Assembly: GCA_016707705.1 (NCBI GenBank)
Contig: JADJHD010000001.1
Span: 382,646-446,645, forward strand
Reading direction: 5' to 3'
Origin: Bacteroidales bacterium
GTDB taxonomy: Bacteria > Bacteroidota > Bacteroidia > Bacteroidales > UBA4417
DNA length: 64,000 nucleotides
Below, one piece after another: positions 6,410 to 31,365 of this stretch. A program made the translations under genes and the position numbers. How positions within the stretch are numbered: position 1 is the stretch's first letter; each line of letters begins with the position of its first letter. Below the pieces are notes generated by a model, which made no database searches, was not told the DNA's origin, and saw nothing but the letters and a program-made list of their open reading frames with translations.

Positions 6410-6984
6410 TTTTAGTAGAATAAAAGAAAAGGTAACTAAGGTCTTGGATAGAGCCTGCTGATATTAACCTTCTTCACGAAACAATCCCGGCTGAACTACG
6501 ATGAAAAGAACAAAGAGCGGTGTGGTTCAGATTATCTTCAAGCATTATCCTGTTTTTCCAAAAAGGTCATACGGTTTTATGAACTTTTCTTCTAATATAA
6601 TTGCAATCCGCATGCCAATATATATATATAACTGATAATCATATTATTACAACACTTTTCCCAATACAATAAAAAGAGTTTTGTTCACAAATAGAACAGT
6701 TGTTTCTTTTCGGAATAGGAAAAAGATGATTAAATGATTAATCGCCGGAGAATTAAGATTCAGAATCTGGAAATGAAAGTATCCATTAATAAGTGGAAAT
6801 GAATAAGATAGAATTCAAGAAATTTACAGTCTGGCTCTATTGAATCCCAATGAAATTCGCTGAAAGACTGTTTGTCAGGAAAGCAATTTTGGGAACTGGT
6901 TATCATGAAAATTGCTGATCCGGGCTCAGGAAATAATCACTGAACCAACAGAACAGAAAGCACTTATACATTTGATAACAGGCT

Positions 6985-8586
6985 TTATCGCAGCAGCATC
7001 ACTACTCCCCTGATTGGGGATTCCTGCAGAATCTGAATGTAGCCAGGGACCTTGAAGTATACTACCCAGGTGTACAAATCTGATTGGCAAGGTTGTCCCT
7101 TATAGGTTCCATCCCATCCGTTGTTGATATTGTCAGATTCAAATATCAGCTCACCCCACTTATTGTATACCAGCATCTTATATTCAAATGGAATATCCAG
7201 ATTTGTGTATGCCATAAAATCGTCATTCAATCCATCAGCATTTGGAGAGAAACCGGTCGGAACTTCAATTCTTGCCAATTGCCTGCTTCCAACGCTAACC
7301 AAAACAGTGTCATTGGCAAGGCAGCCATTCCTGTCAAGTACCTTGATTATATAATCTCCCTGATCAGTTTCACCCACATGCTCAACCTTGTAGCTAAATC
7401 CGCTGGCAGTATTATCAGAAGGTGTAATCCACTGATAGGTCATTGGATTCCCTGTCCAAACCATTGCCATCAATTCAAGAGGATCTCCAAAGTCAAGAGT
7501 CTTATTTCCGATAATTTCAACTACTGCCGGCACAATTATTTTGGCATTTCCTGAATTGAACTGTACCGGAATCTCCTGATTGTAAACATTGTAGAATACA
7601 TTCATTCCTGCTGAATCATTAAATATGAGACCCGATTTACCTTGAGCAAGAGTCTTGAAAATCAGCTCAATAACCTGACCACTATCAGCAATTGTAACAG
7701 GCGTTGCATCATGCCAAAGAATACTGATCTCTCCCTGTATTGAATCATGATAAATTTCAACTCCTGAATAGATTGAAGGATCAACATTCCTGAATCCGGT
7801 GCAATGGAGTAAGGATGTATTATATCCCATATTCATTTTAAATGAAGCAATATCCTTAAATCCAAACACGTAAATAGGTATCGACAAATGATCTCCCAAA
7901 CATGCAGAGGTATCACCGGTAAGGATTTTACCTGCATCCGGGACGTTGATGCTTACATTTGCGGTACAGCCATTCGTATCTGAAACGTAGAACGTCTGAT
8001 AGCCAGGACTTACAAAATACTCCCCTATTCCCTTATAAGGTTCTGTGCCACCTGTAGCTGTAACCATCACTGTTGCAGAGCCACCCATGCTCATTATTGG
8101 ATTAATTATCTCAGCTTCCGCAACAAGTAATTGAGGTTGTGATATTACAATGAGAGTGTCAAATGTGCAACCGATTGCATCAGTTATACTTAAGGTAAGT
8201 GCACCTGCTGATAATCCAAGCAGTTGATTACCCAGCATGCCATTGCTCCATGAAAGCGTGTAGGGAGAAATTCCACCAGAAACAGTAACATCAATTGAGC
8301 CATTTGATGCTCCGAAGCAGCTGACTGGAACCATTGTAACCTGAACGGCAATAGAAGAATCTGGCTCGCTGATCTGCAGGGAATCAATAAGCTGACATCC
8401 ATTGGCATCCAAAACAACTACAGTATAAACTCCAGCAGGGAGGTTTAATGCTTTTGCATTGGTTTGATGAAGGGTATCGTTCCACGAATATGAGTATGGT
8501 GCCGTGCCTTGAGCAACTGTAAATTCTGCCCATCCATTATTTCCGCCATGGCAACTTACATCACCATACTGGTTTCCTGAAATCAC
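6985..8586 (-). CDS. C-terminal fragment of a frameshifted giant adhesin: SprB-type repeats, cohesin-like module, T9SS type B (CHU_C / gliding-motility-associated) C-terminal sorting domain
   Basis: SprB-repeat signatures (CHGGNNGWAEFTVAQGTAPYSYSWND; CFGASNGSIDVTVSGGISPYTLSWSNG). Type B CTD at aa 441-533, nt 6988-7266 (VPTGFSPNADGLNDDF...YNKWGELIFES...GWDGTYKGQPCQSDLYTWVVYF). The frame is open upstream of the annotated start (VIVVIPVPVISGNQ) and continues the 8598..8807 fragment after a frameshift. Confidence 0.9.
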   Translation of the reverse strand: MISGNQYGDVSCHGGNNGWAEFTVAQGTAPYSYSWNDTLHQTNAKALNLPAGVYTVVVLDANGCQLIDSLQISEPDSSIAVQVTMVPVSCFGASNGSIDVTVSGGISPYTLSWSNGMLGNQLLGLSAGALTLSITDAIGCTFDTLIVISQPQLLVAEAEIINPIMSMGGSATVMVTATGGTEPYKGIGEYFVSPGYQTFYVSDTNGCTANVSINVPDAGKILTGDTSACLGDHLSIPIYVFGFKDIASFKMNMGYNTSLLHCTGFRNVDPSIYSGVEIYHDSIQGEISILWHDATPVTIADSGQVIELIFKTLAQGKSGLIFNDSAGMNVFYNVYNQEIPVQFNSGNAKIIVPAVVEIIGNKTLDFGDPLELMAMVWTGNPMTYQWITPSDNTASGFSYKVEHVGETDQGDYIIKVLDRNGCLANDTVLVSVGSRQLARIEVPTGFSPNADGLNDDFMAYTNLDIPFEYKMLVYNKWGELIFESDNINNGWDGTYKGQPCQSDLYTWVVYFKVPGYIQILQESPIRGVVMLLR

Positions 8587-8597
8587 AGGAACAGGGA

Positions 8598-8807
8598 TTA
8601 CAACAATAACTGAGGATTCTGTTGGAATTTAGTCTCACAATAATCATTCTTTACTGATACAGAATAGTTTCCTGGTGCCAGATTCAGGAATACTGAATCA
8701 TTGCTCCAGCTAACACCATTATCAATACTGTACAGGAGGTTACCTGTACCTGAAGCAGAAATGGTTATAGTTCCGTTTGAGAGACCGCAGGTTGCACCGG
8801 AGGGCAC
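8598..8807 (-). CDS. Middle fragment (repeat unit 11) of the same adhesin
   Basis: PSGATCGLSNGTITISASGTGNLLYSIDNGVSWSNDSVFLNLAPGNYSVSVKNDYCE is one more copy of the 78-aa repeat. The frame is open upstream to about 8880 (…YPNNPVIISDNPGVHVASVV). Confidence 0.8.
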   Translation of the reverse strand: MPSGATCGLSNGTITISASGTGNLLYSIDNGVSWSNDSVFLNLAPGNYSVSVKNDYCETKFQQNPQLLL

Positions 8808-11191
8808 TACAGAGGCAACATGAACACCCGGATTATCACTGATGATAACAGGATTGTTTGGATAGGTCTGTTCTGAAAGTTCGCATCCTTGACTTTAATG
8901 AAGTATGAACCAGAAAGCAATGAACCGAAAGAACCGCTGGTTGACCAATGAACTCCATTGTCGATGCTGTAAAGTATATTACCTGTTCCGGTTGCTGTAA
9001 TGGTTATACTTCCATTTGCATTACCACAACTGGCATTGGTGAATGTTACATCTGTTATCTGAGGTCCACCCACACTGTTGATTATGACAGGGTTGTTTGG
9101 ATATATGGATTCGCATAAATTATCCTTGACCCTAATGAGATAAGTGCCTGCATCCAAAGAAGTAAAGGTGTTGGAACCCGACCAGCTTAATCCATCATTG
9201 ATGCTATAAAGCAGAGTCCCTGTTCCGGATGCATTTATGGTAACGTTTCCGTTTGACTGTCCGCAAGTTGCGTCAGTTGAATTGACAGCTATAATCTGAG
9301 GACCGCCAATACTGTTGATTATAACAGGATTATTTGGATAAGTCGCTGTACAATAATCATCTTTCACCTTAACCAGATAATTTCCTGCAGGCAAGGAATT
9401 GAAAGTACCAGAAGCAAACCAATTGATTCCATTATCAATACTGAACGATAAAGTACCTGAGCCGGAAGCTGTTATTGTAATCGTACCGTTCGACTGACCA
9501 CATGTTGCATCTGTTGATATTACACTTGATATCAGAACTCCTCCAAGGTTTTCAATATTTACAGGATTATTTGAATAAATGGTTTCGCAGTTATCATCCT
9601 TAACTCTTACATTGTAGATGCCTGCGGCCAATGCATTGAAGAAACTGCTTGTTGACCAGTTGATTCCATTATTGATGCTGTAGAGTAATGTACCTGTTCC
9701 GGATGCGGTTATTGTGATGCTGCCGTTTGATTGTCCGCAACTCGCATTGGTAGATGTTACGGATGCAATCACCGGACCACCAACGCTGTTGATAATGACA
9801 GGATTGTCAGGGTTAATGGCCTCACATAGATCATCCTTAATCTTTATTGTATAAGATCCGGCAGGTAAAGCATTAAAATTGCCTGATCCTGACCAATTAA
9901 TTCCATTATCAATACTGTATAATAGGGTACCAGTGCCTGAAGCTACTATTGAAATTGTACCGTTTGAAAGTCCGCAACTTGCATCGGTTGAAGCAACTGA
10001 TATTATTTGAGGGCCTCCAATGCTATTTATTATTACTGGATTCCCGGGATACAGTGTCTCACAATTGTTATCCTTCACACGGATAAGATATGACCCTGCC
10101 GGAAGCGAATTGAAAGTGCTATCAGTTGACCAGTTTGCTCCATCATCAATACTAAATAGCAGGCTGCCTGTATTTGTAGAACTAATCACAATACTGCCGT
10201 TTGTTTGGCCACAACTTGCATCTGTAGACAAAACATTCAGAATTTGTGGGCCGCCAATGCTATTGATAATTACAGGATTATTCGGATACACTGATTCGCA
10301 GTCGGAATTTCTAACCTTAATCATGTAAGATCCAGCGGGCAATGAATTAAAGATACTGTCAGTGTACCAGTCTGCACCATCATTGATACTAAACATCATA
10401 GGTGCTGTTCCGGTTGCACTGATTGTAATTATTCCATTGTTTTGTCCACAACTTGCATCAGACGAAGAAACACTTACAATTACAGGGCTTTCAGTACTAT
10501 TAATGATTACCGGATTATTCGGGTATACAGATTCGCAATTGGCATTCTTGACCCTAACCAAATAATTTCCTGCAGAAAGTGAGTCGAAATCACCAGAATT
10601 TGACCAGCTGAATCCATCATCTATGCTGAATAACAGACCCGATCCGGAAGCACTGATTGTAATAATTCCATTTGAAAGTCCGCAACTTGCATCCGAGAAT
10701 GCCACTCCAACAATCTGTGGTCCTCCAAGATTATTGATTATCACAGGATTATTAGGATATACTGATTCGCAGTTGTCATCCTTTATCCTGACAAGGTAGT
10801 TCCCTGCTGCCAATGAATCAAAGGATGAAGAAACAGACCAGTTTGTACCATTGTCAATACTGTATAACAGTGTTCCTGTGCCATTACCTTCAATAATAAT
10901 TGTTCCATTTGAAAGACCACAGCTGGCATCTGTACTCGAGGCAGAGACTATTCCTGGTCCCGCGATGGTATTGATAACCAAAGGATTTTGCACAAATGGA
11001 AGCTCACAGTTTCCATCTTTAATAGTCAACCAGTAACTACCGATTGGAAGGTTATTGAAGATGCTGTCTGAACTCCAGTTTGTTCCGTTATCAATACTGA
11101 ACATCAGATTGCCATTACCTGAGGCGCTGATACTGATAACACCATTATTCAACCCACAAGAAGCATCAGTCTTGACAACAGAAACAAATTG
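8600..11191 (-). repeat. 11 tandem coding repeats of ~78 aa (~234 bp)
   Basis: Unit: S-x-DASCG-[LQ]-SNG-x-ITI-x-ASGTG-x-LLYSIDNG-x-NWS…F-x-SL-x-AG-x-Y-x-[IV]-[KR]-VKD-x-NCE-x-x-YPNNPVIINS-x-GGPQI. I read it 11 times in the translations. The DNA copies are diverged, not identical. Confidence 0.9.
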
Positions 11192-11779
11192 AGGATTCAT
11201 GAAATTGATAATTCTTGAGGATGTAGCAGGCAAGCAACTGTTCCCATTTCCAAGACCATTGGCAGTAAGATTTAACTGAACAGATCCGTTAATCAAATCA
11301 GCTGGTCCAGGAGTATATACCGGATTAATGTTCAGCACATTGTCGAAGGAACCATCGCCTGAACTTGTCCACATTACAGAAGCTGAATTCAAAGCATATG
11401 CACTAGATAATGACAGAGCTGATCCGGAACATAAAATAGTATCGTTGCCGGCATAAGCCAAAGGCTGAGCAAATACTTCTATCGTGCCAAGTTCCAGCGT
11501 TGCATCGCAGGCATTGGAAGAATGTTGGATAGCAGTGAGATAGTATAATCCAGGGGACATATTCCAGCTAATCTGAACTGTATCAGCATTTGAAGGCAGG
11601 GTTACTATTGAACCTGACTGCTCCCTTATCTCCCAAGTATAGGTAGACTGTGGTTCACCATCTATTCGATACCTTCGGATTGAACCGGTACATACCTTGT
11701 CAATACTATACTGAGCTGTCACCTGAAATGCCAGGAGCAGTTGTATAGTCAACAATAAGTATTTCAATCCGTTAGTCAT
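8807..11779 (-). CDS. N-terminal fragment of the adhesin: signal peptide, PKD-like head, AG-x-D module, 10 tandem 78-aa repeats
   Basis: Signal peptide MTNGLKYLLLTIQLLLAFQVTAQ. Repeats are listed under the repeat feature. The ORF ends in out-of-frame junk (FQNRPIQTILLSSVIIRVFMLPL) right where the repeat consensus expects CE-x-x-YPNNPVII. Confidence 0.9.
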   Translation of the reverse strand: MTNGLKYLLLTIQLLLAFQVTAQYSIDKVCTGSIRRYRIDGEPQSTYTWEIREQSGSIVTLPSNADTVQISWNMSPGLYYLTAIQHSSNACDATLELGTIEVFAQPLAYAGNDTILCSGSALSLSSAYALNSASVMWTSSGDGSFDNVLNINPVYTPGPADLINGSVQLNLTANGLGNGNSCLPATSSRIINFMNPQFVSVVKTDASCGLNNGVISISASGNGNLMFSIDNGTNWSSDSIFNNLPIGSYWLTIKDGNCELPFVQNPLVINTIAGPGIVSASSTDASCGLSNGTIIIEGNGTGTLLYSIDNGTNWSVSSSFDSLAAGNYLVRIKDDNCESVYPNNPVIINNLGGPQIVGVAFSDASCGLSNGIITISASGSGLLFSIDDGFSWSNSGDFDSLSAGNYLVRVKNANCESVYPNNPVIINSTESPVIVSVSSSDASCGQNNGIITISATGTAPMMFSINDGADWYTDSIFNSLPAGSYMIKVRNSDCESVYPNNPVIINSIGGPQILNVLSTDASCGQTNGSIVISSTNTGSLLFSIDDGANWSTDSTFNSLPAGSYLIRVKDNNCETLYPGNPVIINSIGGPQIISVASTDASCGLSNGTISIVASGTGTLLYSIDNGINWSGSGNFNALPAGSYTIKIKDDLCEAINPDNPVIINSVGGPVIASVTSTNASCGQSNGSITITASGTGTLLYSINNGINWSTSSFFNALAAGIYNVRVKDDNCETIYSNNPVNIENLGGVLISSVISTDATCGQSNGTITITASGSGTLSFSIDNGINWFASGTFNSLPAGNYLVKVKDDYCTATYPNNPVIINSIGGPQIIAVNSTDATCGQSNGNVTINASGTGTLLYSINDGLSWSGSNTFTSLDAGTYLIRVKDNLCESIYPNNPVIINSVGGPQITDVTFTNASCGNANGSITITATGTGNILYSIDNGVHWSTSGSFGSLLSGSYFIKVKDANFQNRPIQTILLSSVIIRVFMLPL

Positions 11780-11795
11780 CTCAATATTATATTTA

Positions 11796-12440
11796 CTAGT
11801 ATTGGTAAATATGTGAACTTACAGGTCTTGGCTTCACCATTAGTTGTACTGGCAGGCCGGGTATTGAATTGGTTCCATTCATATCAGTAACCTGCATGAT
11901 TTGGTAATTAGTTGTGGATGTTGGATTTACCAAAAGCATTGCAGGACTGCTTGTAATATTATCGTACACAATAGTATTAGATCCATCAGATAGGGTTATA
12001 CTCCAGGGCCCCAAACCAGTCAGAGTTACCTGAAGTTGTGTCGAATCGCCAGTACAAATTGGGTTAGGAGCAGCAATTACTGCTGTTGGAAGTGAGGATT
12101 GAACAGTAGCCTTACCGATTCGGTAGTTCATGCAACCCTGGTCGCTATGGATTATTATCTTGTAGAAGTACACTCCCGACTTCTTCCATAATACATCAAC
12201 TGTCGCCTGATCAGGTGAGCTTATGTATTGAATTTCATCATTGGTTGCCAATGTGGTAAGGTCTGTTTCATCATAGATAATCCATTCATAGGTATAACCG
12301 GGAGTTGGTTGTACACCCAATGTATAGGTTTGTCCTTCAGAAATAACAATTCCTGACTGGGCTACTCCTCGCAGAGAACCCAGGAACACTGGTAAGAATA
12401 CCAGCATTACACGGAATATATTATTTAAGGACAATTTCAT
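11796..12440 (-). CDS. Secreted two-domain PKD/Ig-like protein, no recognisable T9SS CTD
   Basis: Signal peptide MKLSLNNIFRVMLVFLPVFLGSLRGVAQ. The head domain carries the Y-x-[LV]…Y-x-W…G-x-Y…C pattern shared with the neighbouring genes. Ends MVKPRPVSSHIYQY. Its stop is 16 nt upstream of the next gene's start (11779). Confidence 0.75.
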   Translation of the reverse strand: MKLSLNNIFRVMLVFLPVFLGSLRGVAQSGIVISEGQTYTLGVQPTPGYTYEWIIYDETDLTTLATNDEIQYISSPDQATVDVLWKKSGVYFYKIIIHSDQGCMNYRIGKATVQSSLPTAVIAAPNPICTGDSTQLQVTLTGLGPWSITLSDGSNTIVYDNITSSPAMLLVNPTSTTNYQIMQVTDMNGTNSIPGLPVQLMVKPRPVSSHIYQY

Positions 12441-13175
12441 CTATTAATTCTATTACACACCTGTTTAATAACTACTTAATCAGTGTTATTTAAGGCAATA
12501 CTTAAACATAACCAAACAGATTTCTCCGCTCGTTTAAAGACATGGTTCTTCCATTCCCGGTTAATAACCAGGTTGACAATTGCCGCCAATATCAGTGTCG
12601 GCCCTCGACTATTCGGGATAAGGTCACTTCTGGGCCTTCCCCTGTTCCTGTTTTGGAGTACGGGCGGACTACTCCCGGTAAACAACCGGTCTGGACTGTT
12701 TTCCATCCATATATATATTAATAAGGTGGTACATATGAGCTTATATCCCAAGCCGTCACCAGCTTGATGAATACAACCAATCAATGCCTAATTGCAAGTC
12801 AAACTCATAGTTTCTCTTGCTTGTGCACTATCCGGGATCGTATGCACCCATGCAGGCACATATACCCATGATCGATATTGTGAACAATTCACCAGTGTTT
12901 ATCCAACAAGAAAAACAACTTGGAAGAACTTACCGGTAAAATTGTTGCAGGCAGAAATTTCCAGGAAACATGTTTCCGGACAGGATTCGCATTATCCTTA
13001 TGCAGCAAGGCATCCGGCAATCAGATTGCAGCCGGCATTTACCTATGCATTCACAGGATGAACGATCAGAAGTTGTTCATACAGATGCTATTCTCCAGAC
13101 CCGCATCTTCGGCCAGGGAAAGATATTCCCTGGCCGAAAAGGGTCAGAAAAAGCAAACTTTATGAATAAGACTTG
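12441..13175. other. GC-rich, ORF-free, hairpin-dense 735-bp spacer: candidate structured ncRNA or long leader (family unknown)
   Basis: The track gives only mutually overlapping 80-100-aa ORFs on both strands, with no recognisable motifs. Hand-counted G+C is 35-53% per 60-nt line (mean about 45%), against 15-30% in the other intergenic lines I counted. Multiple stems: 13108-13138, 13058-13080, 13014-13035, 12823-12847, 12655-12675, 12675-12689. Palindrome at 12964-12977. Confidence 0.35.
13108..13138 (-). terminator. Perfect 12-bp GC-rich hairpin 38 nt after the stop of the 372-aa gene (attenuator/terminator or RNA-stabilising stem; no U-tract)
   Basis: TTCGGCCAGGGA-aagatat-TCCCTGGCCGAA. 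No T-run follows the stem on either strand, so it is not a canonical intrinsic terminator. Confidence 0.35.
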
Positions 13176-14294
13176 TTATGGTCTAACAGGCAAGAATGGC
13201 AGTACTGGCAATCCAGTATTGCTGATCACGTCTGGTCTGGCTTTAAGTGTCTGAGTTGCAATATCATTTGCAAATGCATCAATCCATGGACAGGTAGATG
13301 GTGTTCCACCGGCATCGGTGTGAACGTCGCCTACACCTGTGCCAGCTGCTGGAACTGTAACTCCATCAACAGCAAGCAATATGGTTTGATCTGTCAGACC
13401 CAAGGCTGAAGGAGTAACAAGATCGGAATGGTCCAAGGTAACCCGGATGTATATTGATTGTCCGGCTGAACCGACAAATGACCCTGAAGCAGGTGTTACT
13501 GTAGCTGTTGTAGTATACAGTCCACCACCAGCATCTGTCATTGCAACTGGCGTTGTCCAGGCAGCATCGGTGGAGAACTCAACAGTTATACGCTCAAGCG
13601 GATCATAACCGGAGAGCATCACACTCGGCCTCCAGGCTTCTGACCAGTTGGCAGCGACAACTTCATAATAGAGTACATCCTGTCCAAAGTCATATAAGAT
13701 ACCATCATCTCCTGCTCCAACTGAACTTTCAGGAACATAAGTAGATGAAACGATATCTGAGATGCAACGAGGAATGTCGGTTCCATAACCAGGCTGTGTA
13801 ACCTGTGTTGCATTCTGGTTTGCTATATCCAGAGTAAATGCATTGAGTGGCTGAATCTTGTAGACTTTAAGATTCTGGGATACACACGCATCAGTTCCGG
13901 ATGAAGTATTTTTAACCTGGATGACTACAAATACAGGCTGTGCTGGATTGTAGGCAAAACTCTTCCAGGTGAGTGAAAGTTGTGCAGTTCCGGTAGCAGG
14001 ATCATTGTAGCCTGTTCCGGTTGCAGCAAGAAGAGAACTGGCAGGAACAGACTCACGATTTGCTGTGAGGGTTCCGGCTGCAATAAAATTAGGATCCTGG
14101 GTTACAAACCAGAGGTATTCCTTAGTACCCGGAGGGGTTGGAACATTAACCTCATATGTGTATGGATTTCCAGGAATAGGATGCAAAGCATCTGCGGAAA
14201 GACAGGTCACTGGCCTTGGAGCCAACTGACCATAGGACGAGCTAATGCCAACTGCAAAAATAACAGCTAACAAAACGAGAATTTGCTTTTTCAT
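13176..14294 (-). CDS. Secreted Ala/Thr/Gly/Pro-rich 372-aa protein of unknown function (PKD-like head), no recognisable CTD
   Basis: ORF 13176..14411. The likely start is the Met at 14294, which gives signal peptide MKKQILVLLAVIFAVGISSSYGQ. Coding G+C is about 47-52% in the lines I counted, higher than the flanking adhesins (about 37%). Preceded by a 269-bp AT-rich spacer and followed by a strong hairpin. Ends …LKARPDVISNTGLPVLPFLPVRP. Confidence 0.8.
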   Translation of the reverse strand: MKKQILVLLAVIFAVGISSSYGQLAPRPVTCLSADALHPIPGNPYTYEVNVPTPPGTKEYLWFVTQDPNFIAAGTLTANRESVPASSLLAATGTGYNDPATGTAQLSLTWKSFAYNPAQPVFVVIQVKNTSSGTDACVSQNLKVYKIQPLNAFTLDIANQNATQVTQPGYGTDIPRCISDIVSSTYVPESSVGAGDDGILYDFGQDVLYYEVVAANWSEAWRPSVMLSGYDPLERITVEFSTDAAWTTPVAMTDAGGGLYTTTATVTPASGSFVGSAGQSIYIRVTLDHSDLVTPSALGLTDQTILLAVDGVTVPAAGTGVGDVHTDAGGTPSTCPWIDAFANDIATQTLKARPDVISNTGLPVLPFLPVRP

Positions 14295-14563
14295 GTTTTT
14301 AGATTTAAGAGTTGTTTTGAAGTAATTACAAGTTTTCTTTTTTAATGTAGTTTTAAGTTGTTTTAAGTGATTTACTTGTTTTGACTGTAGAGTTGAATCC
14401 ATTTTAATCACTGCTTTTGTTTCATAGGCTACTTAATTGGTTTATAATAATTTGAGAAATCAAAATCTTTGTTGGACAATGTTGAATTACATTGATTGCC
14501 CATGATGTTTTGATGACAATCGGATGCGGTACATCTGTTTTAAGTTTTTCATGGTTCGAACTA

Positions 14564-17500
14564 TTATTGTTTTATGATATTAGGTCGTGGTTTAACTGTG
14601 AGCTGAACTGTTTTTTGAGCAGAGGAGTTCCCACTACTATCAATTAACCAATAGGTTATGGTATGAATCACATTTACCAAAGGATCTCCAGGCAACCTGA
14701 TTTCACCTGAATAAAGTGACACTGCTCCTACTCCACTGATAGGAACAGGATTTCCTCCATTGAAGTCAATTCTCCAATGAAGGACAAGTGAGCCTGTTGG
14801 CGTACAATTGTCAGTAAAACTCGAGGGATCAGGGCTGAGATTTGCCTTATCTGCAGGAGTTAAAATGTAATATTCAGGCCTGTCAGGCGTGATATCAGTA
14901 GTAGGGTCAAAGAAGGTTGCATCTATGATATCTATTACACAATATGACTGAGGAGCAGGTGCTATAAAATCAGGGGGTTCCTGATCTAGTACAATAATTG
15001 TTTGCAAACAGGTATCTGCACCTGAAGCATTGGTACCAATCCACATGATAATTGTTGTTCCCAGGTTAAACTGGTAAGGATTTGGCAATACAGAACCAGT
15101 TCCTGAACCAGTGGTGGCTCCTGTCATATTCCAGCTAATTGTAACTCCAAGGCCCTGTGATATGGTTGGTTGACCTGGATCTACCATTGCATTGCACAAG
15201 CCCGTTATTGCACCTACAGTGATATTTGCAGGACATAGAATTAGAGGTGGATCATTTTGAGTTATAGTAATAGTGAACAAGCATGATGAACTGTTCCCAC
15301 AGACATCAGTTATTGTGTATGTTATCTGGGTTATTCCAATATTGAACTGGTATGGTGAACTGATTATTCCAGATCCTGACGCATTTGTAGCTCCTGACAT
15401 TGACCAGCCTATAAGCATTCCGGCAGCAGATGAACAATCATCAGAGTATACAGGTGCAGATAATGCAATGGTTCCGTATGTTTGACCGGGATCAGATGGA
15501 GAATTTATATTAGCAGGACATGCAACAACTGGAGCTGTAATATCCTCAATTACAATCTCCTCCTGACTAATAGCAGTGCAACCATAAGTATTGCTTGCCA
15601 TCAATGTCAAAAGGAAAAGATCATTGCACGAGTTTCCTGCAGTTATATTTACACTTACCTGATTGGATTGTCCTGAAATTGCACCATTGCCTGAAATAGT
15701 CCAGGCATAGCCATTCATGGCTGGAGGTCCACTATAAATATTGCCGGTGGAATTAGGACATACAGGAGAGCTGCCTGTTATGTAGTTAACCGGAAGTGTA
15801 TGAACCTGAATCGTATAGCTGCTATTTAATGTACTTGAGCAACCCAGTGATGATGTGACACCAACCAAATTATAGATAAAAGTTCCTGCCGAACCAGTAG
15901 GAACTAATATGTAGGCAGTATTCCCGGAATTGGTTGTAACTACCTGATTCGCACCTCCATTTATATTATATGTAAATGTGTAAGGTGCTACTCCTCCCGT
16001 TCCGATAATTTGCAATTCACCAGGAAGTGAAAATTGACACAAATCGTGAGGACCTGCAAAACTGGCACCAGGCAAAGAATTGAGATGTACTTCAACTGTT
16101 CCGGTGGTTGGAGTACAACCATAACCATCAGTGACTGTTAAAGTATAAATACCTTGATTTGGAGCTTGAACATTGGGAATTATTGGATCCTGCAGGTTTG
16201 AAGTGAATCCATTTGGACCTGTCCACGAGAATGAAATCGGAGGACGACCACCTACAATATTTGCCAATAATTGAACAGTCTCACCAATACAATATGAACC
16301 GCTCGTAGTATAGGAAGGACTAATTGTAAATGGTATCTGTGCCAGGGTTCCAAAGGAAATATCATCCAGTCCGAAATCATTTCCATTTGCTGATGTGTTA
16401 AGGTCCAAAATTTCTATCACTGCGGTTGTAGCGGATCCTGAATTCCATGATCCATAAAATCGATCCTTATCCTGCCATGGGTTGGTAAGTATATTCTGAC
16501 CTGATGTCAGATAGGCTATTGTACCCACCTGTGCTCCATTTACTGAAAATTGCAGTTCTGCATATGGAGCAACATTATTCAAGCTTATAGCCCAGGCTGA
16601 AAAATAGTAATCTGTATTTGGCAGAACGGTAACTGTTTCACGCCAGACATATGGTTGTGGGGCAAATTTCGCCCCGTTTACAATCAAGAAGTTATTATTC
16701 CCTGTTCCTGACCCATTAGTATGGTCATATCCCCAAAAGTTGGTATGGGTGTAATGAGCATTACTGTTTATAGCATATTCACTCTCAGGTGCAATCAAGC
16801 CATTCGCGGTAGGATCATATGAATAGCCTGAAGTAAATCCGCTATTCCCAGTGGAGAAATCCCCATTTACAACAAGCTCAGTAGATACTGAAAGAAATGC
16901 AGTTGCAGAACAACCATCGGAATTAGTGACAGTTACACTATACATACCTGCAACATCTACATAAATTTCCTGAGTACTCTCTCCTGTATTCCAGTAGTAT
17001 GTCTCTGCAGGACTGCTAGTCAATTTTATTTTTCCGGGAGAGGAACAATAGTCTGCATTAATAACCGGATCAGGCACAGGTAAAGTACTGACTGAAACTG
17101 TTGCACTATTCCCGCAAAGGGTAGCTGAATTTACATAAGTAACAGTATAATTTGTTGTTACAGTGACAGGAACATTTATAGGATTCGCAAGGTTAGAAGT
17201 AAATCCGGGAGGATCTGAAATCCAGGAAATCTGGGCAGTTACGCTTGGAGTGCCAGTCAGGCTAACATTATCTATTCCCCAATATCGTCCCCTGTTTGAA
17301 CCGCAGTAATAATTGAACCTGAGTTGAAAGTTGGAGGAGTTTATATAGGACGCACCCAGATTTATTGACTCATTCTGGAAGGATCCCGCTGATCCCCTGT
17401 CATTATTGTAAGTAGCAACTGTCGTCCAGGTTGACCCACCGTTTGTTGTAACCTCAACTTTTGCATATTCACCTGATGTACTATTATAATCATAGTATTG

Positions 17501-22610: not shown

Positions 22611-22697
22611 GGAGAGATGCCAGAGTGGTCGATCGGGGCGGTCTCGAAAACCGTTGACCCCTCACGGGGTCCCAGGGTTCGAATCCCTGTCTCTCCG
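22611..22697 (+). tRNA. tRNA-Ser (anticodon CGA)
   Basis: Acceptor GGAGAGA/TCTCTCC + G. Anticodon stem GCGGT/ACCGT with loop CTCGAAA. Long variable arm. T-arm CAGGG-TTCGAAT-CCCTG. 87 nt. Confidence 0.95.
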
Positions 22698-24198: not shown

Positions 24199-24285
24199 CG
24201 GAGAGAGAGGGATTCGAACCCACGGACCCCTTGCAGGGTCAACGGTTTTCAAGACCGCCGCGATCAACCACTCTGCCATCTCTCC
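24199..24285 (-). tRNA. tRNA-Ser (anticodon UGA)
   Basis: The minus strand reads GGAGAGATGGCAGAGTGGTTGATCGCGGCGGTCTTGAAAACCGTTGACCCTGCAAGGGGTCCGTGGGTTCGAATCCCTCTCTCTCCG. Anticodon loop CTTGAAA, long variable arm. One U-U mismatch in the T stem. Confidence 0.9.
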
Positions 24286-28579: not shown

Positions 28580-28694
28580 GAACATCCTTTTTCATTCTAC
28601 TCCATCACCTCAATTCCAATTGCTCATTTCATCAGGACTTTTTTTAGTTCCGTATTCGGAATTGTGAATGCTTTATTCTTAATTTTGTCCAATC

Positions 28695-28782
28695 ATCTAA
28701 ATAGGGGTGCCTTAATATTACGGGCTGAGATCAAACCCATATAACCTGATCCGGGTAATGCCGGCGGAGGGAAAGAATAGCA
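28695..28782 (+). promoter_or_regulatory. TPP (THI-box) riboswitch
   Basis: GGGGTGC (28704-10) … CTGAGA (28725-30) … ACCC … AACCTGATCCGGGTAATGCCGGCGGAGGGAA (28743-73) matches the conserved TPP aptamer core. It lies about 160 nt upstream of the TonB-dependent receptor start. Confidence 0.85.
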
Positions 28783-28938
28783 ACTGTTTTCAGGCTGCAA
28801 TTTTCGGGCACTCATAATTAGATTACTTATTTTACTAACTGCAAATAAGCGGCTTAGCTTTTATTTGGCAATCGTCAACATTGGAGATTTCTGAATGGAA
28901 AACCAGATGCCGAGTTTTTGCACTAAAGAAATCTCAAA

Positions 28939-31365
28939 ATGAAGATTACTGCAATTATTGGATTAATGCTATTGGTTTCTGTGCAAGTTTTTGCTCAGCA
29001 CACACTTACCGGCACAATTTACAATTCGGCAACTGGAGCCCCTTTGGAAGGTGCCAATCTGATAATCCGTGATCTTCAGAAGGGCACAACCTCTGACAAT
29101 GCAGGCCGATTTAAATTAAATGGGATACCCGATGGATCGTATACCATCACCATCAGCTATATCGGATTCAGAACATACGAACAATCTGTAAAAATGTTTA
29201 AAGATGCAGATTTAGAAGTTCAACTTGAAGAATCAGCAATATTATCGCAGGAGGCTGTTATCAGGGCAACTAGAGCTGCTGATAATGAACCGATAACCTT
29301 TCAGAATCTCAGAAAAAAAGATCTAGAGAAAAGCAACCATGGTCAGGACCTTCCTTTTCTGTTATCAGAATCAGTATCAGCTGTTTCCACCTCCGACGCA
29401 GGTAATTCAATAGGCTATTCTTCCCTTCGCATACGAGGAACTGATCTGACCAGAATCAATGTCACAATGAACGGCATTCCGCTCAATGATCCAGAATCGC
29501 ATAATGTGTTCTGGGTTGATTTGCCGGATGTAGCGGCCTCTTCACAGAGCATTCAGATACAACGGGGTGTTGGAACATCTTCCAATGGGGCGGCAGCTTT
29601 TGGAGCAAGCATTAACCTCTTAACTTCTTCTATTTCTCCTGATCCGTCAGCAGATATAGAAGCTGCAATTGGTTCATTTAACAGCAAAAGAGTATCTTCT
29701 ACTTTTAACTCCGGACTCATAAATAAACATTTCAATTTCCGGGGAAGAGTTTCTTCAATCGCTTCGGATGGCTTTATTGACCGGGCAGCTTCCGCCCTAT
29801 TCTCCTACCATCTTTCAGGTTCATATGTTGGCAAGAAAAGTCAGCTCACCTTTAACCTACTTTCCGGCAAAGAAAAAACCTACCAGGCTTGGGATGGTGT
29901 TCCTCATGAAATACTTGACACTAACCGCACCTTCAATGGAATGGGGTCCTACTACGACACGAATGGGAATTTGAAATTCTATGAAAATGAGACAGACAAT
30001 TATAAACAAACACATTACCAGCTCTTATATTCAAGAATCCTCAATGAACATTTGATCTTAAATACGGCACTCCATTATACAAAAGGTGCCGGGTATTATG
30101 AGCAATACAAGGATAACGATGGGTGGGATTCTTATGGAATTCAACCAATTGTCATTCCCGGTCCCTTTGTTGTAATAAACACAGATACAATCCATTATCC
30201 TGACAGTCTAATTAACTCCTCTGATCTTATCAGGCAAAAATGGCTGGACAATGATTTTGCAGGAATTACTTATTCACTTTCCTGGCAAAACAGAATTTTA
30301 GAGTCCTCAATTGGTGGGTCCTGGAATATCTATTCAGGAAATCATTTTGGCAAGATTGTCTGGTCAAACTTGAGTTATATTGATCCGGAGTATGAATGGT
30401 ACAGAAGCAAATCAACAAAAGGGGACCTAAATCTATATGCCAAAACAACACTAAAGCTAACCCAGGAATTAAATTTATTCGCAGACATGCAACTTCGTAG
30501 GATCAACTATGATATTGAAGGGATTGATGATGACCTTAGAATAATTGATCAAACGCATGATTACCTTTTCTTCAACCCCAAAACAGGACTTCTCGCTAAG
30601 CTTAACTCTAAGAATGACTTATATCTCTCAATTGCAGTTGCAAACAGAGAACCAAACAGGGATAATTTTGTAGATGCTGATCCATCCAAGTCAATCCCAG
30701 GCCGGGAAAGACTCTACGACTTTGAGTCAGGTCACAGGTATCACAATAAAATGCTTTCAATAAGTTCCAACATCTACTATATGCTCTATCGGGACCAGTT
30801 AATTCTAACAGGGGCAATCAATGATGTTGGAGCTCCTGTTATGGAAAATGTTCCGGAAAGCTATCGACTGGGGTTAGAACTCAGTTCACAAGTAAAAATC
30901 TTGAAAAAAATTCAATGGAACTTCAATGGAACTGTCAGCAGGAATAAAATCAAGTCTTATACTGAATTTGTCGATGATTGGGATACCTGGTCACAACTTC
31001 AGTTTGAGCACAAAAACACTGATATTTCATTCTCGCCTGCAGTAGTAATCAACAACTCCGTCAGCTGGGAAATCTCAAATGGCTTCTCATCTGAATTAAT
31101 CAGCAAGTACGTAAGTCATCAGTATATTGACAATACTCAGAATAATTCAAGGTCTATCGATCCATACTTTATCAATAGCCTGAGATTGAGTTACTCAATT
31201 CAGAATTTCATATTCCGGGAGATTAGATTCAACCTAATGATTAACAATCTGTTTAATCAAAAATATGAATCAAATGCTTGGGTTTACAGATACTATGAAT
31301 CAGGTAGTCAAAAAGTTATGGATGGATATTTCCCTCAAGCCGGGATCAACTTCTTCTTTGAGTAA
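28939..31365 (+). CDS. TonB-dependent outer-membrane receptor with N-terminal carboxypeptidase-regulatory-like domain; probable thiamin/precursor transporter
   Basis: Signal peptide. GTIYNSATGAPLEGANLII… (CarbopepD_reg-like), plug region, 808 aa, ends …AGINFFFE. Preceded by the TPP riboswitch. Confidence 0.85.
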   Translation: MKITAIIGLMLLVSVQVFAQHTLTGTIYNSATGAPLEGANLIIRDLQKGTTSDNAGRFKLNGIPDGSYTITISYIGFRTYEQSVKMFKDADLEVQLEESAILSQEAVIRATRAADNEPITFQNLRKKDLEKSNHGQDLPFLLSESVSAVSTSDAGNSIGYSSLRIRGTDLTRINVTMNGIPLNDPESHNVFWVDLPDVAASSQSIQIQRGVGTSSNGAAAFGASINLLTSSISPDPSADIEAAIGSFNSKRVSSTFNSGLINKHFNFRGRVSSIASDGFIDRAASALFSYHLSGSYVGKKSQLTFNLLSGKEKTYQAWDGVPHEILDTNRTFNGMGSYYDTNGNLKFYENETDNYKQTHYQLLYSRILNEHLILNTALHYTKGAGYYEQYKDNDGWDSYGIQPIVIPGPFVVINTDTIHYPDSLINSSDLIRQKWLDNDFAGITYSLSWQNRILESSIGGSWNIYSGNHFGKIVWSNLSYIDPEYEWYRSKSTKGDLNLYAKTTLKLTQELNLFADMQLRRINYDIEGIDDDLRIIDQTHDYLFFNPKTGLLAKLNSKNDLYLSIAVANREPNRDNFVDADPSKSIPGRERLYDFESGHRYHNKMLSISSNIYYMLYRDQLILTGAINDVGAPVMENVPESYRLGLELSSQVKILKKIQWNFNGTVSRNKIKSYTEFVDDWDTWSQLQFEHKNTDISFSPAVVINNSVSWEISNGFSSELISKYVSHQYIDNTQNNSRSIDPYFINSLRLSYSIQNFIFREIRFNLMINNLFNQKYESNAWVYRYYESGSQKVMDGYFPQAGINFFFE

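Follow-up and report, generated by a model that had tools for sequence, protein, structure and literature searches.

We find that a long gap in a surface adhesin operon of a Bacteroidales bacterium is probably (with a probability of about 0.6) a local, partly eroded version of an intercistronic module that is shared within a family of type-IX-secretion adhesin operons from uncultured Bacteroidales. The operon lies in a stretch of 64,000 nucleotides (nt) of contig JADJHD010000001.1 (assembly GCA_016707705.1, positions 382,646 to 446,645), hereafter called the window. The gap occupies window positions 12441-13175 (735 nt), between a gene for a 372–amino acid (aa) protein, with its stop at 13176, and a gene for a 214-aa protein, with its ATG at 12440; both are on the minus strand. 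In its full form, the module would comprise a long RNA hairpin that immediately follows the 372-aa gene, a non-coding leader, and a small gene encoding a basic, predicted-disordered repeat protein. The window would have kept the hairpin intact, the leader of relatives would be unrecognizable there, and the small gene would be down to a 76-codon open reading frame (ORF) with one 24-residue segment of the family. The gap is not a large structured RNA, as had been proposed in an initial annotation of this DNA. Its history as an eroded module, rather than as such an RNA, would explain why it has a coding-like G+C content and no long ORFs.

The 735-nt spacer between the two genes, which the initial annotation had delimited, is reproduced by an independent metagenome contig (L009) that is 99.96% identical over 2598 nt, the whole gap included. 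Thus, the gap is not an assembly artifact. The sole mismatch between the two over this length is a non-synonymous change (V16L) within the 76-codon ORF. The annotation had also pointed to a raised G+C content, and this is borne out: the gap has a G+C content of 0.426, against a coding average of 0.397 in the window and a range of 0.27 to 0.45 in its other gaps of at least 100 nt, among which it ranks second highest. Its composition is coding-like and richer than that of most intergenic DNA. The longest ORFs in the gap (102, 94, 94, 89, and 81 aa) overlap one another. A repeat search of 11500-14600, aimed at the template of a diversity-generating retroelement or an invertible promoter, returned only short repeats at chance level.

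The gene order of the operon is a giant PKD protein, the 372-aa immunoglobulin (Ig)–like protein, the gap, the 214-aa protein, an SprB/CHU_C adhesin, and PorP/SprF. We compared it with homologous loci drawn from genomes and metagenomes, which are designated here by L numbers. Every locus that is long enough has a gene of the 372-aa family, a gap of 0.54 to 2.2 kb, a homologue of the 214-aa gene, SprB/PKD/CHU_C adhesins, and PorP/SprF. Judged from these loci, the operon conserves the presence of a long gap and not the sequence within it. Indeed, blastn of the gap against the homologous loci gave matches at chance level only, even for L001, whose flanking protein is 83% identical. Homology in the core of the small ORF surfaced with tblastx and manual comparison after blastn had failed.

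The gap begins with a hairpin, which we show to be a conserved sense-strand RNA structure. Its core is a stem of 15 base pairs (bp), in which 13126-13140 pair with 13106-13120 around the loop UAUCU. The perfect stem at 13108-13138 that had been picked out in the initial annotation is real; it has 13-nt arms and is part of this hairpin of about 68 nt. In an outer stem, purine-rich sequence on the 3′ side pairs with U-rich sequence on the 5′ side that belongs to the conserved motif TTGCTTTTTC. The sequence 3′ of the stem reads GAUGCGGGUCUGGAGAAUAG. In all loci, the gap starts with (G)TTGCTTTTTC, followed by a G+C-rich stem-loop of variable sequence and then a purine-rich run.

The hairpin is present at the equivalent position in 15 homologous loci. 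Across 15 sequences, standard pairing is seen in 90.8% of the cells of the 11 core pairs, and compensatory changes on both sides occur in nine of these pairs. None of 500 shuffles reached the observed covariation score, and pairing falls to 38-66% when the partners are slid, with 42-66% for slides of one to three columns. The alignment holds 24 G·U cells and five A·C cells, which argues for an RNA structure on the sense strand. One compensatory change, from A-U to G-C, separates the window from the related locus L013. A covariance model of the hairpin (R1) finds one site per locus in 15 loci, so that the element is locus-specific, rather than a generic terminator or a dispersed repeat. The only R1 match in the window is at 13086-13160 on the minus strand (47.9 bits, E = 1.2e-8), a match that is partly by construction, as the window sequence is within the seed alignment. 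A 16-nt nhmmer match at 2223-2246 lies inside a gene, has no hairpin, and was taken as chance.

We suggest that the hairpin would govern how much of the upstream products is made relative to the downstream ones, by acting in the mRNA as a processing, stability, or partial-stop element. The 372-aa gene and the genes downstream would be co-transcribed, since neither the window gap nor any of eight homologous gaps contains the Bacteroidota −7 promoter motif TAnnTTTG. Alternatively, the locus might consist of two transcription units, with the hairpin as the terminator of the upstream one, the rest of the gap as the promoter and leader of the unit that contains the 214-aa and adhesin genes, and the small ORF of the window as an incidental feature. 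Such an arrangement would fit a strong G+C-rich hairpin right after a stop codon, the length of the gap, and the fast evolution 3′ of the hairpin in most pairs of loci. However, the missing promoter motif counts against it, no U-tract follows the stem on either strand, and the U-rich and purine flanks merely lengthen the stem. The small ORF, moreover, is under protein-level selection in relatives, so it is not incidental there. We therefore regard two units as rather unlikely. An intrinsic terminator was also considered as the identity of the hairpin itself and rejected, given that its U-run is on the 5′ side and purines are on the 3′ side; a consensus scan did not list the hairpin as a terminator-like site.

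The initial annotation described the gap as hairpin-dense and suggested that it could be a large structured non-coding RNA, or a long structured 5′ leader. This stands for about 68 nt at the 5′ end, which form the covarying hairpin, and falls for the remainder. The sense-strand fold of the whole gap has a z score of −9.1 (−3.8 on the opposite strand), while the 635 nt that remain without the first 100 nt have a z score of −2.3. Two nearby coding stretches of the same length score −3.4 and −0.3. The impression of a hairpin-dense region stems from one element, the 68-nt hairpin at 13087-13154. The 5- to 6-bp stems and the 14-nt palindrome that had also been listed are what chance would produce, because the rest of the gap folds like neighboring coding sequence. 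The palindrome, GGAAACATGTTTCC, is present at 12964-12977 and is partly disrupted in L013.

Database searches gave the same picture. With 4227 Rfam models, at E ≤ 10, the region 12300-13300 returned only a chance match to a small nucleolar RNA (17 bits) and the gap matched no family; ten homologous loci had no Rfam match either. The matches in the window that reach Rfam gathering scores are one thiamine pyrophosphate (TPP) riboswitch and two tRNAs, all outside the gap. Substitutions relative to L013 affect 27 predicted pairs, of which 11 are kept (two of them by two-sided changes) and 16 are broken, and they do not avoid paired positions.

That most of the 735 nt could nevertheless make up a large non-coding RNA, or a long leader through which the downstream adhesin genes are controlled, is very improbable. 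It might find support in the coding-like or higher G+C content against an A+T-rich intergenic background, in the folding score of the whole gap, in the high conservation with L013 over spacer positions 209-537 (counted from the 372-aa gene), and in a leader candidate with three helices and about 104 nt that the gaps of some relatives contain, known from six sequences only. Against this stand the lack of an Rfam family, a fold that is no better than the coding controls once the 5′ hairpin is removed, and the broken pairs. The model of the relatives' leader scores at best 7 bits in the window, and outside the hairpin and the ORF core the gap is unalignable, even with loci at 83% flanking-protein identity. 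Furthermore, part of the gap (12587-12658) has frame-consistent similarity to a protein family (E = 1.2e-5), the kind of result that the initial annotation itself had named as a refutation.

This family is a small gene found in the gaps of relatives. L001 and L011 share a 141-nt block of the gap that is 80% identical, whereas their flanking genes are only 70-76% identical. In both, the ORF begins MGN..NKHGP, and 15 of the 28 differences fall at third codon positions. A profile search of public data gave 24 called ORFs (P0121-P0144) of 76-133 aa, annotated as "hypothetical protein" where they are named. Several are on contigs that also carry a gene of the 372-aa family, and on readable contigs the small ORFs sit between the genes of the 372-aa and 214-aa families. 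Members have the N-terminus M..I.NKHGPDFDVG, tandem 8-residue repeats of the form [RK]PRDGTE[RG] (24 nt each), an optional middle part (...LV.RYYYR.T..PQDVRIHGRPSSKWR), and the C-terminus ...KPA.GTGNGRG. A central segment, NRG.PRSD....RGPT..L, is common to the family and the window copy. Among 1.84 billion representatives, a search found 88 relatives at E < 1e-3, 44 of them at E < 1e-10. The small protein has no Pfam family, and a literature search for the family's peptide motifs gave unrelated matches only. It is basic and predicted to be disordered; an AlphaFold2 model (pLDDT 50, pTM 0.11) is consistent with disorder.

We show, from the pattern of codon substitutions, that the small ORF of relatives behaves as a translated gene under protein-level purifying selection. 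Within the repeats, the first and second codon positions of P-R-D-G-T are near invariant and the third is free (entropy ~0, 0.2, and 0.7-1.7, respectively). These values cover all 32 matched units from six loci, a set that leaves out two units of the L002 array and none of the other five arrays. In the first 44 codons, the ratio of non-synonymous to synonymous substitution rates (dN/dS) is 0.09-0.52 in frame, with 0.16 for L001 versus L011, and is mostly above 1 in the two other frames (range, 0.56-13). Length differences between members are in frame. Codon-position counts are flat in the C-terminal half (256/233/263), and the coding evidence comes from the N-terminal 44 codons and the repeats.

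The window carries a diverged, probably eroding counterpart of this gene. The gap had been called ORF-free, with no recognizable motif, in the initial annotation; its overlapping ORFs indeed have no Pfam match, but a 76-codon ORF, which is nested in the 102-aa ORF with a TTG start, has frame-consistent similarity to the family. It sits where the small gene sits in relatives, between the 372-aa and 214-aa genes and on the same strand. Four members of the closest subfamily, none of them from the window, served to build a profile, and when the full set of 2591 stop-free window fragments was searched with it, this ORF was the only match (hmmsearch E = 1.2e-5). The match spans profile positions 17-40 and contains the degenerate pair RPRSDLIPNSRGPT, which corresponds to PRSD....RGPT of the short subfamily. 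By tblastx, the matching segment hits L001 with E = 6.5e-6.

Other hallmarks of the family are gone. The NKHGP motif was not found in the window ORF, where the aligned codons read MENSPDRLFT and DRLFT replaces the motif, and there are no tandem PRDGTE repeats. A candidate C-terminal motif, ACCGGGAATGGAAGA at 12547-12561, reads TGNGRT in a frame other than that of the 76-codon ORF; relatives read the corresponding motif as the C-terminal ...TGNGRG of the small protein. Taken alone, this match is weak (i-Evalue 0.85; nhmmer E = 1.1). Searching the window by nhmmer with profiles of typical gaps gave nothing significant. On these comparisons, decay of the window ORF is probable, or at the least a release from its ancestral constraint.

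In six relatives (L002, L010, L015, L016, L017, and L022), the space between the hairpin and the small ORF holds a candidate leader RNA of about 104 nt with three helices. Its outer helix pairs GUGCAUACA with UGUAUAGCAC, and its inner hairpins are GGGAUGC/GCAUUCC and UUUCCGG-NNNN-CCGnGAAA. In these sequences, only six in number, 85.9% of cells pair, nine of 33 pairs show compensatory changes, and one of 500 shuffles reaches the covariation score. A covariance model of the leader (R2) scores 74-111 bits in the six loci. It has no match in the window gap, where, with filters off, it reaches 7 bits at most, at the hairpin. The candidate leader has no match in Rfam.

These relatives might suggest a further reading, in which the covarying hairpin, the three-helix leader of about 104 nt, and a repeat-peptide ORF whose number of 24-nt repeats varies between strains together form an undescribed cis-regulatory cassette. 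The leader or the nascent peptide would tune the type-IX adhesin and its PorP/SprF anchor, and the window version would be reduced but functional. A version that still functions would account for the good conservation of spacer positions 209-537 with L013. This reading rests mostly on the relatives rather than on the window, and we consider it unlikely.

Several points weigh against our own reading of the gap as a partly eroded module. The 372-aa gene of L013 is 96% identical in protein, and the sequence of this locus reaches 537 nt into the gap, over which it differs from the window at 48 places. Of these, five fall in the hairpin region and 29 in spacer positions 79-208 (~22% divergence); positions 209-537, which comprise the block upstream of the small ORF and the first 68 nt of that ORF, have 16 differences in 329 nt. 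Here, 4.9% of positions differ, compared with 38.7% of the fourfold sites in the adjacent gene. Selection may thus still act on the block and the ORF, and "eroded" might be too strong a word. Over the 22 ORF codons shared with L013, there are two synonymous and four non-synonymous changes, which are too few to decide. Furthermore, the small ORF family is undetectable in L003, L004, L007, L008, and L012 and is therefore not an obligatory part of the operon. Finally, the function that we propose for the hairpin is inferred from its position and shape.

The conservation with L013 is, however, not clean evidence of selection, because L011 and L014 show the opposite pattern. Between these two loci (L011:3-521 and 522-850; L014:931-1449 and 1450-1755), gene identity is 98.8% and fourfold divergence 2%, whereas the first ~300 nt of the gap reach only 92% identity and contain indels. 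This suggests recombination breakpoints near the gene end. The comparisons point to a mosaic locus, in which recombination explains as well as selection would the conserved positions 209-537. We rejected the L013 conservation as clean evidence of selection on these grounds, and also on those of the broken pairs.

The contents of the gap differ widely between relatives. Tandem arrays of heptanucleotides occur in the gaps of L002, L003, L005, L007, L016, L017, L022, and L023, with units that include AAAGGTT, AAATCGT, AACTCAG, and ATTGGAA. They take up much of these gaps (e.g., L003:7214-7308 and L007:8217-8315) and extend into the small ORFs at their 3′ ends. Short tandemly repeated heptamers are known from cyanobacteria, and the arrays resemble them. 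The window and L001 have no such arrays, and no tandem repeats of any kind were found in the window gap. In L008, the gap holds an ORF resembling a REP-associated tyrosine transposase (L008:8572-9252; NCBIfam NF047646 at E = 1.6e-17, which does not reach the curated cut-off), and in L016 it holds a Fic/DUF4172 gene (L016:5677-6807). Therefore, the gap tolerates insertions. Additional ORFs in the L003, L004, and L005 gaps have no similarity to one another and belong to no family, and they were treated as spurious.

Given such contents, the middle of the window gap (12707-13086) might be a remnant of insertion or recombination, at a hotspot for foreign or repetitive DNA, with the hairpin as the only functional element. 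The range of gap lengths and the mosaic pattern of divergence would be in keeping with this, and the middle block lacks homologues beyond the lineage of the window. We found no match to 12707-13086 in other loci or in the rest of the window, no similarity of the linker that follows the hairpin to other loci or proteins, and no homologue of the block beyond it in more distant loci; stop-free fragments of 12690-13100 had no match at E ≤ 10 among 5.8 billion proteins. The window has, however, no terminal repeats, transposase remnant, or second copy of this DNA. The block also shows good conservation with L013, and the conserved parts on either side of it, the hairpin and the ORF core, remain in the same order at a roughly constant distance. 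An insertion remnant is thus distinctly improbable, and we retain the eroded module as the explanation of the gap. Its features are listed in Table 1.

Table 1. Features of the window gap and the candidate leader RNA of relatives.
Feature	Position	Strand	Basis
A+T-rich junction preceding the ATG of the 214-aa gene	12441..12475	-	Sequence
76-codon ORF (MENSPDRLF...NNTD), diverged, probably eroding family counterpart	12476..12706 (stop included)	-	ORF and profile search
Short hairpin CCUGG-UUAUUAA-CCGGG, then AAUGGAAGA (tentative)	12547..12572	-	Alignment and frames
Segment still matching the family, residues 17-40, LQNRNRGRPRSDLIPNSRGPTLIL	12587..12658	-	hmmsearch E 1.2e-5, tblastx
Lineage-specific non-coding block 5′ of the small ORF, well conserved with L013	12707..12967	-	L013 alignment
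Fast-evolving linker with small stems and the palindrome 12964-12977	12968..13086	-	L013 divergence
Long RNA hairpin ~20 nt 3′ of the stop of the 372-aa gene	13087..13154	-	Fold, inverted repeat, covariation
Candidate leader RNA	L015:1836-1937, L016:4869-4972, L017:2867-2970, L022:2867-2970, L002:5783-5887, L010:2534-2637		R2 model

The 372-aa gene upstream of the gap (13176-14294, minus strand) encodes a protein with a signal peptide, MKKQILVLLAVIFAVGISSSYGQ. Its family is metagenomic, with 334 clusters at E ≤ 1e-10, and has no match in Pfam or NCBIfam. AlphaFold2 predicts an all-beta protein of tandem Ig-like domains (pLDDT 85, pTM 0.76). Matches of this fold to fimbrial adhesins, pilins, and MSCRAMMs are weak (template modeling score, TM, ≤ 0.3). 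The predicted fold fits a surface structural role without proving one.

Elsewhere in the operon, an SprB-repeat ORF of 990 aa (8807-11779) has no C-terminal sorting domain, and the next ORF (6985-8586, 533 aa) has a C-terminal domain (CTD) of type B. The gap between them (8587-8806) has a G+C content of 0.418. A single 791-aa protein of L003 matches the N-terminus of the 990-aa ORF and the C-terminus of the 533-aa ORF, and the adhesin of the window may thus have been split or duplicated. A second long gap, at 6410-6984 (575 nt, G+C content 0.334), lies between the type B CTD and PorP/SprF genes and has no R1 match. Further along the window, the TPP riboswitch (28693-28789, plus strand, 62.7 bits) is upstream of an 808-aa ORF at 28939-31365, and the tRNA genes are at 22611-22697 (plus strand) and 24199-24285 (minus strand).

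Our results hold a lesson for annotation: a long, ORF-poor operon gap of normal G+C content is not necessarily a large RNA. In this case, one hairpin and what appears to be a decayed small gene account for most of the signal. Three elements tied to type-IX adhesin operons, namely, the post-gene hairpin, the candidate leader RNA, and the small repeat-protein family, are absent from Pfam and Rfam. Going by the context provided in PMC9143113, the regulation of type B CTD and PorP-like gene pairs has been little studied. The three elements hint that expression in type-IX adhesin operons is tuned between cistrons.

The gap resembles the large structured RNAs that Rfam contains from Bacteroidota and metagenomes (GOLLD, ROOL, HEARO, 6S, RNase P, and tmRNA, among others) in being a long ORF-poor stretch of relatively high G+C content in A+T-rich surroundings. 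It differs from them in that it matches no model and has no excess folding energy or conserved structure beyond one hairpin. That hairpin, in turn, shares with Rho-independent terminators a G+C-rich stem-loop just 3′ of a stop codon, but its U-run is on the 5′ side and pairs with the 3′ purine run.

Intercistronic stem-loops in pilus and fimbrial operons set differential mRNA stability or partial termination. In the pap operon of Escherichia coli, the papA message is processed and stabilized by a hairpin; in fimbrial operons, stem-loops after major-subunit genes separate the levels of upstream and downstream products. The window differs from pap-like operons in its organism and secretion system (Bacteroidota, type IX). 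It also differs in the near-invariant 5′ flank TTGCTTTTTC, which is not required by base pairing alone. The likeness is one of layout: in both, a gene encoding a secreted, Ig-like surface protein is followed immediately by a strong hairpin, with adhesin or anchoring genes beyond it. In the window, this hairpin is conserved in position and carries compensatory changes, and for the 372-aa protein encoded before it, prediction gives an all-beta fold that weakly resembles fimbrial adhesins and pilins.

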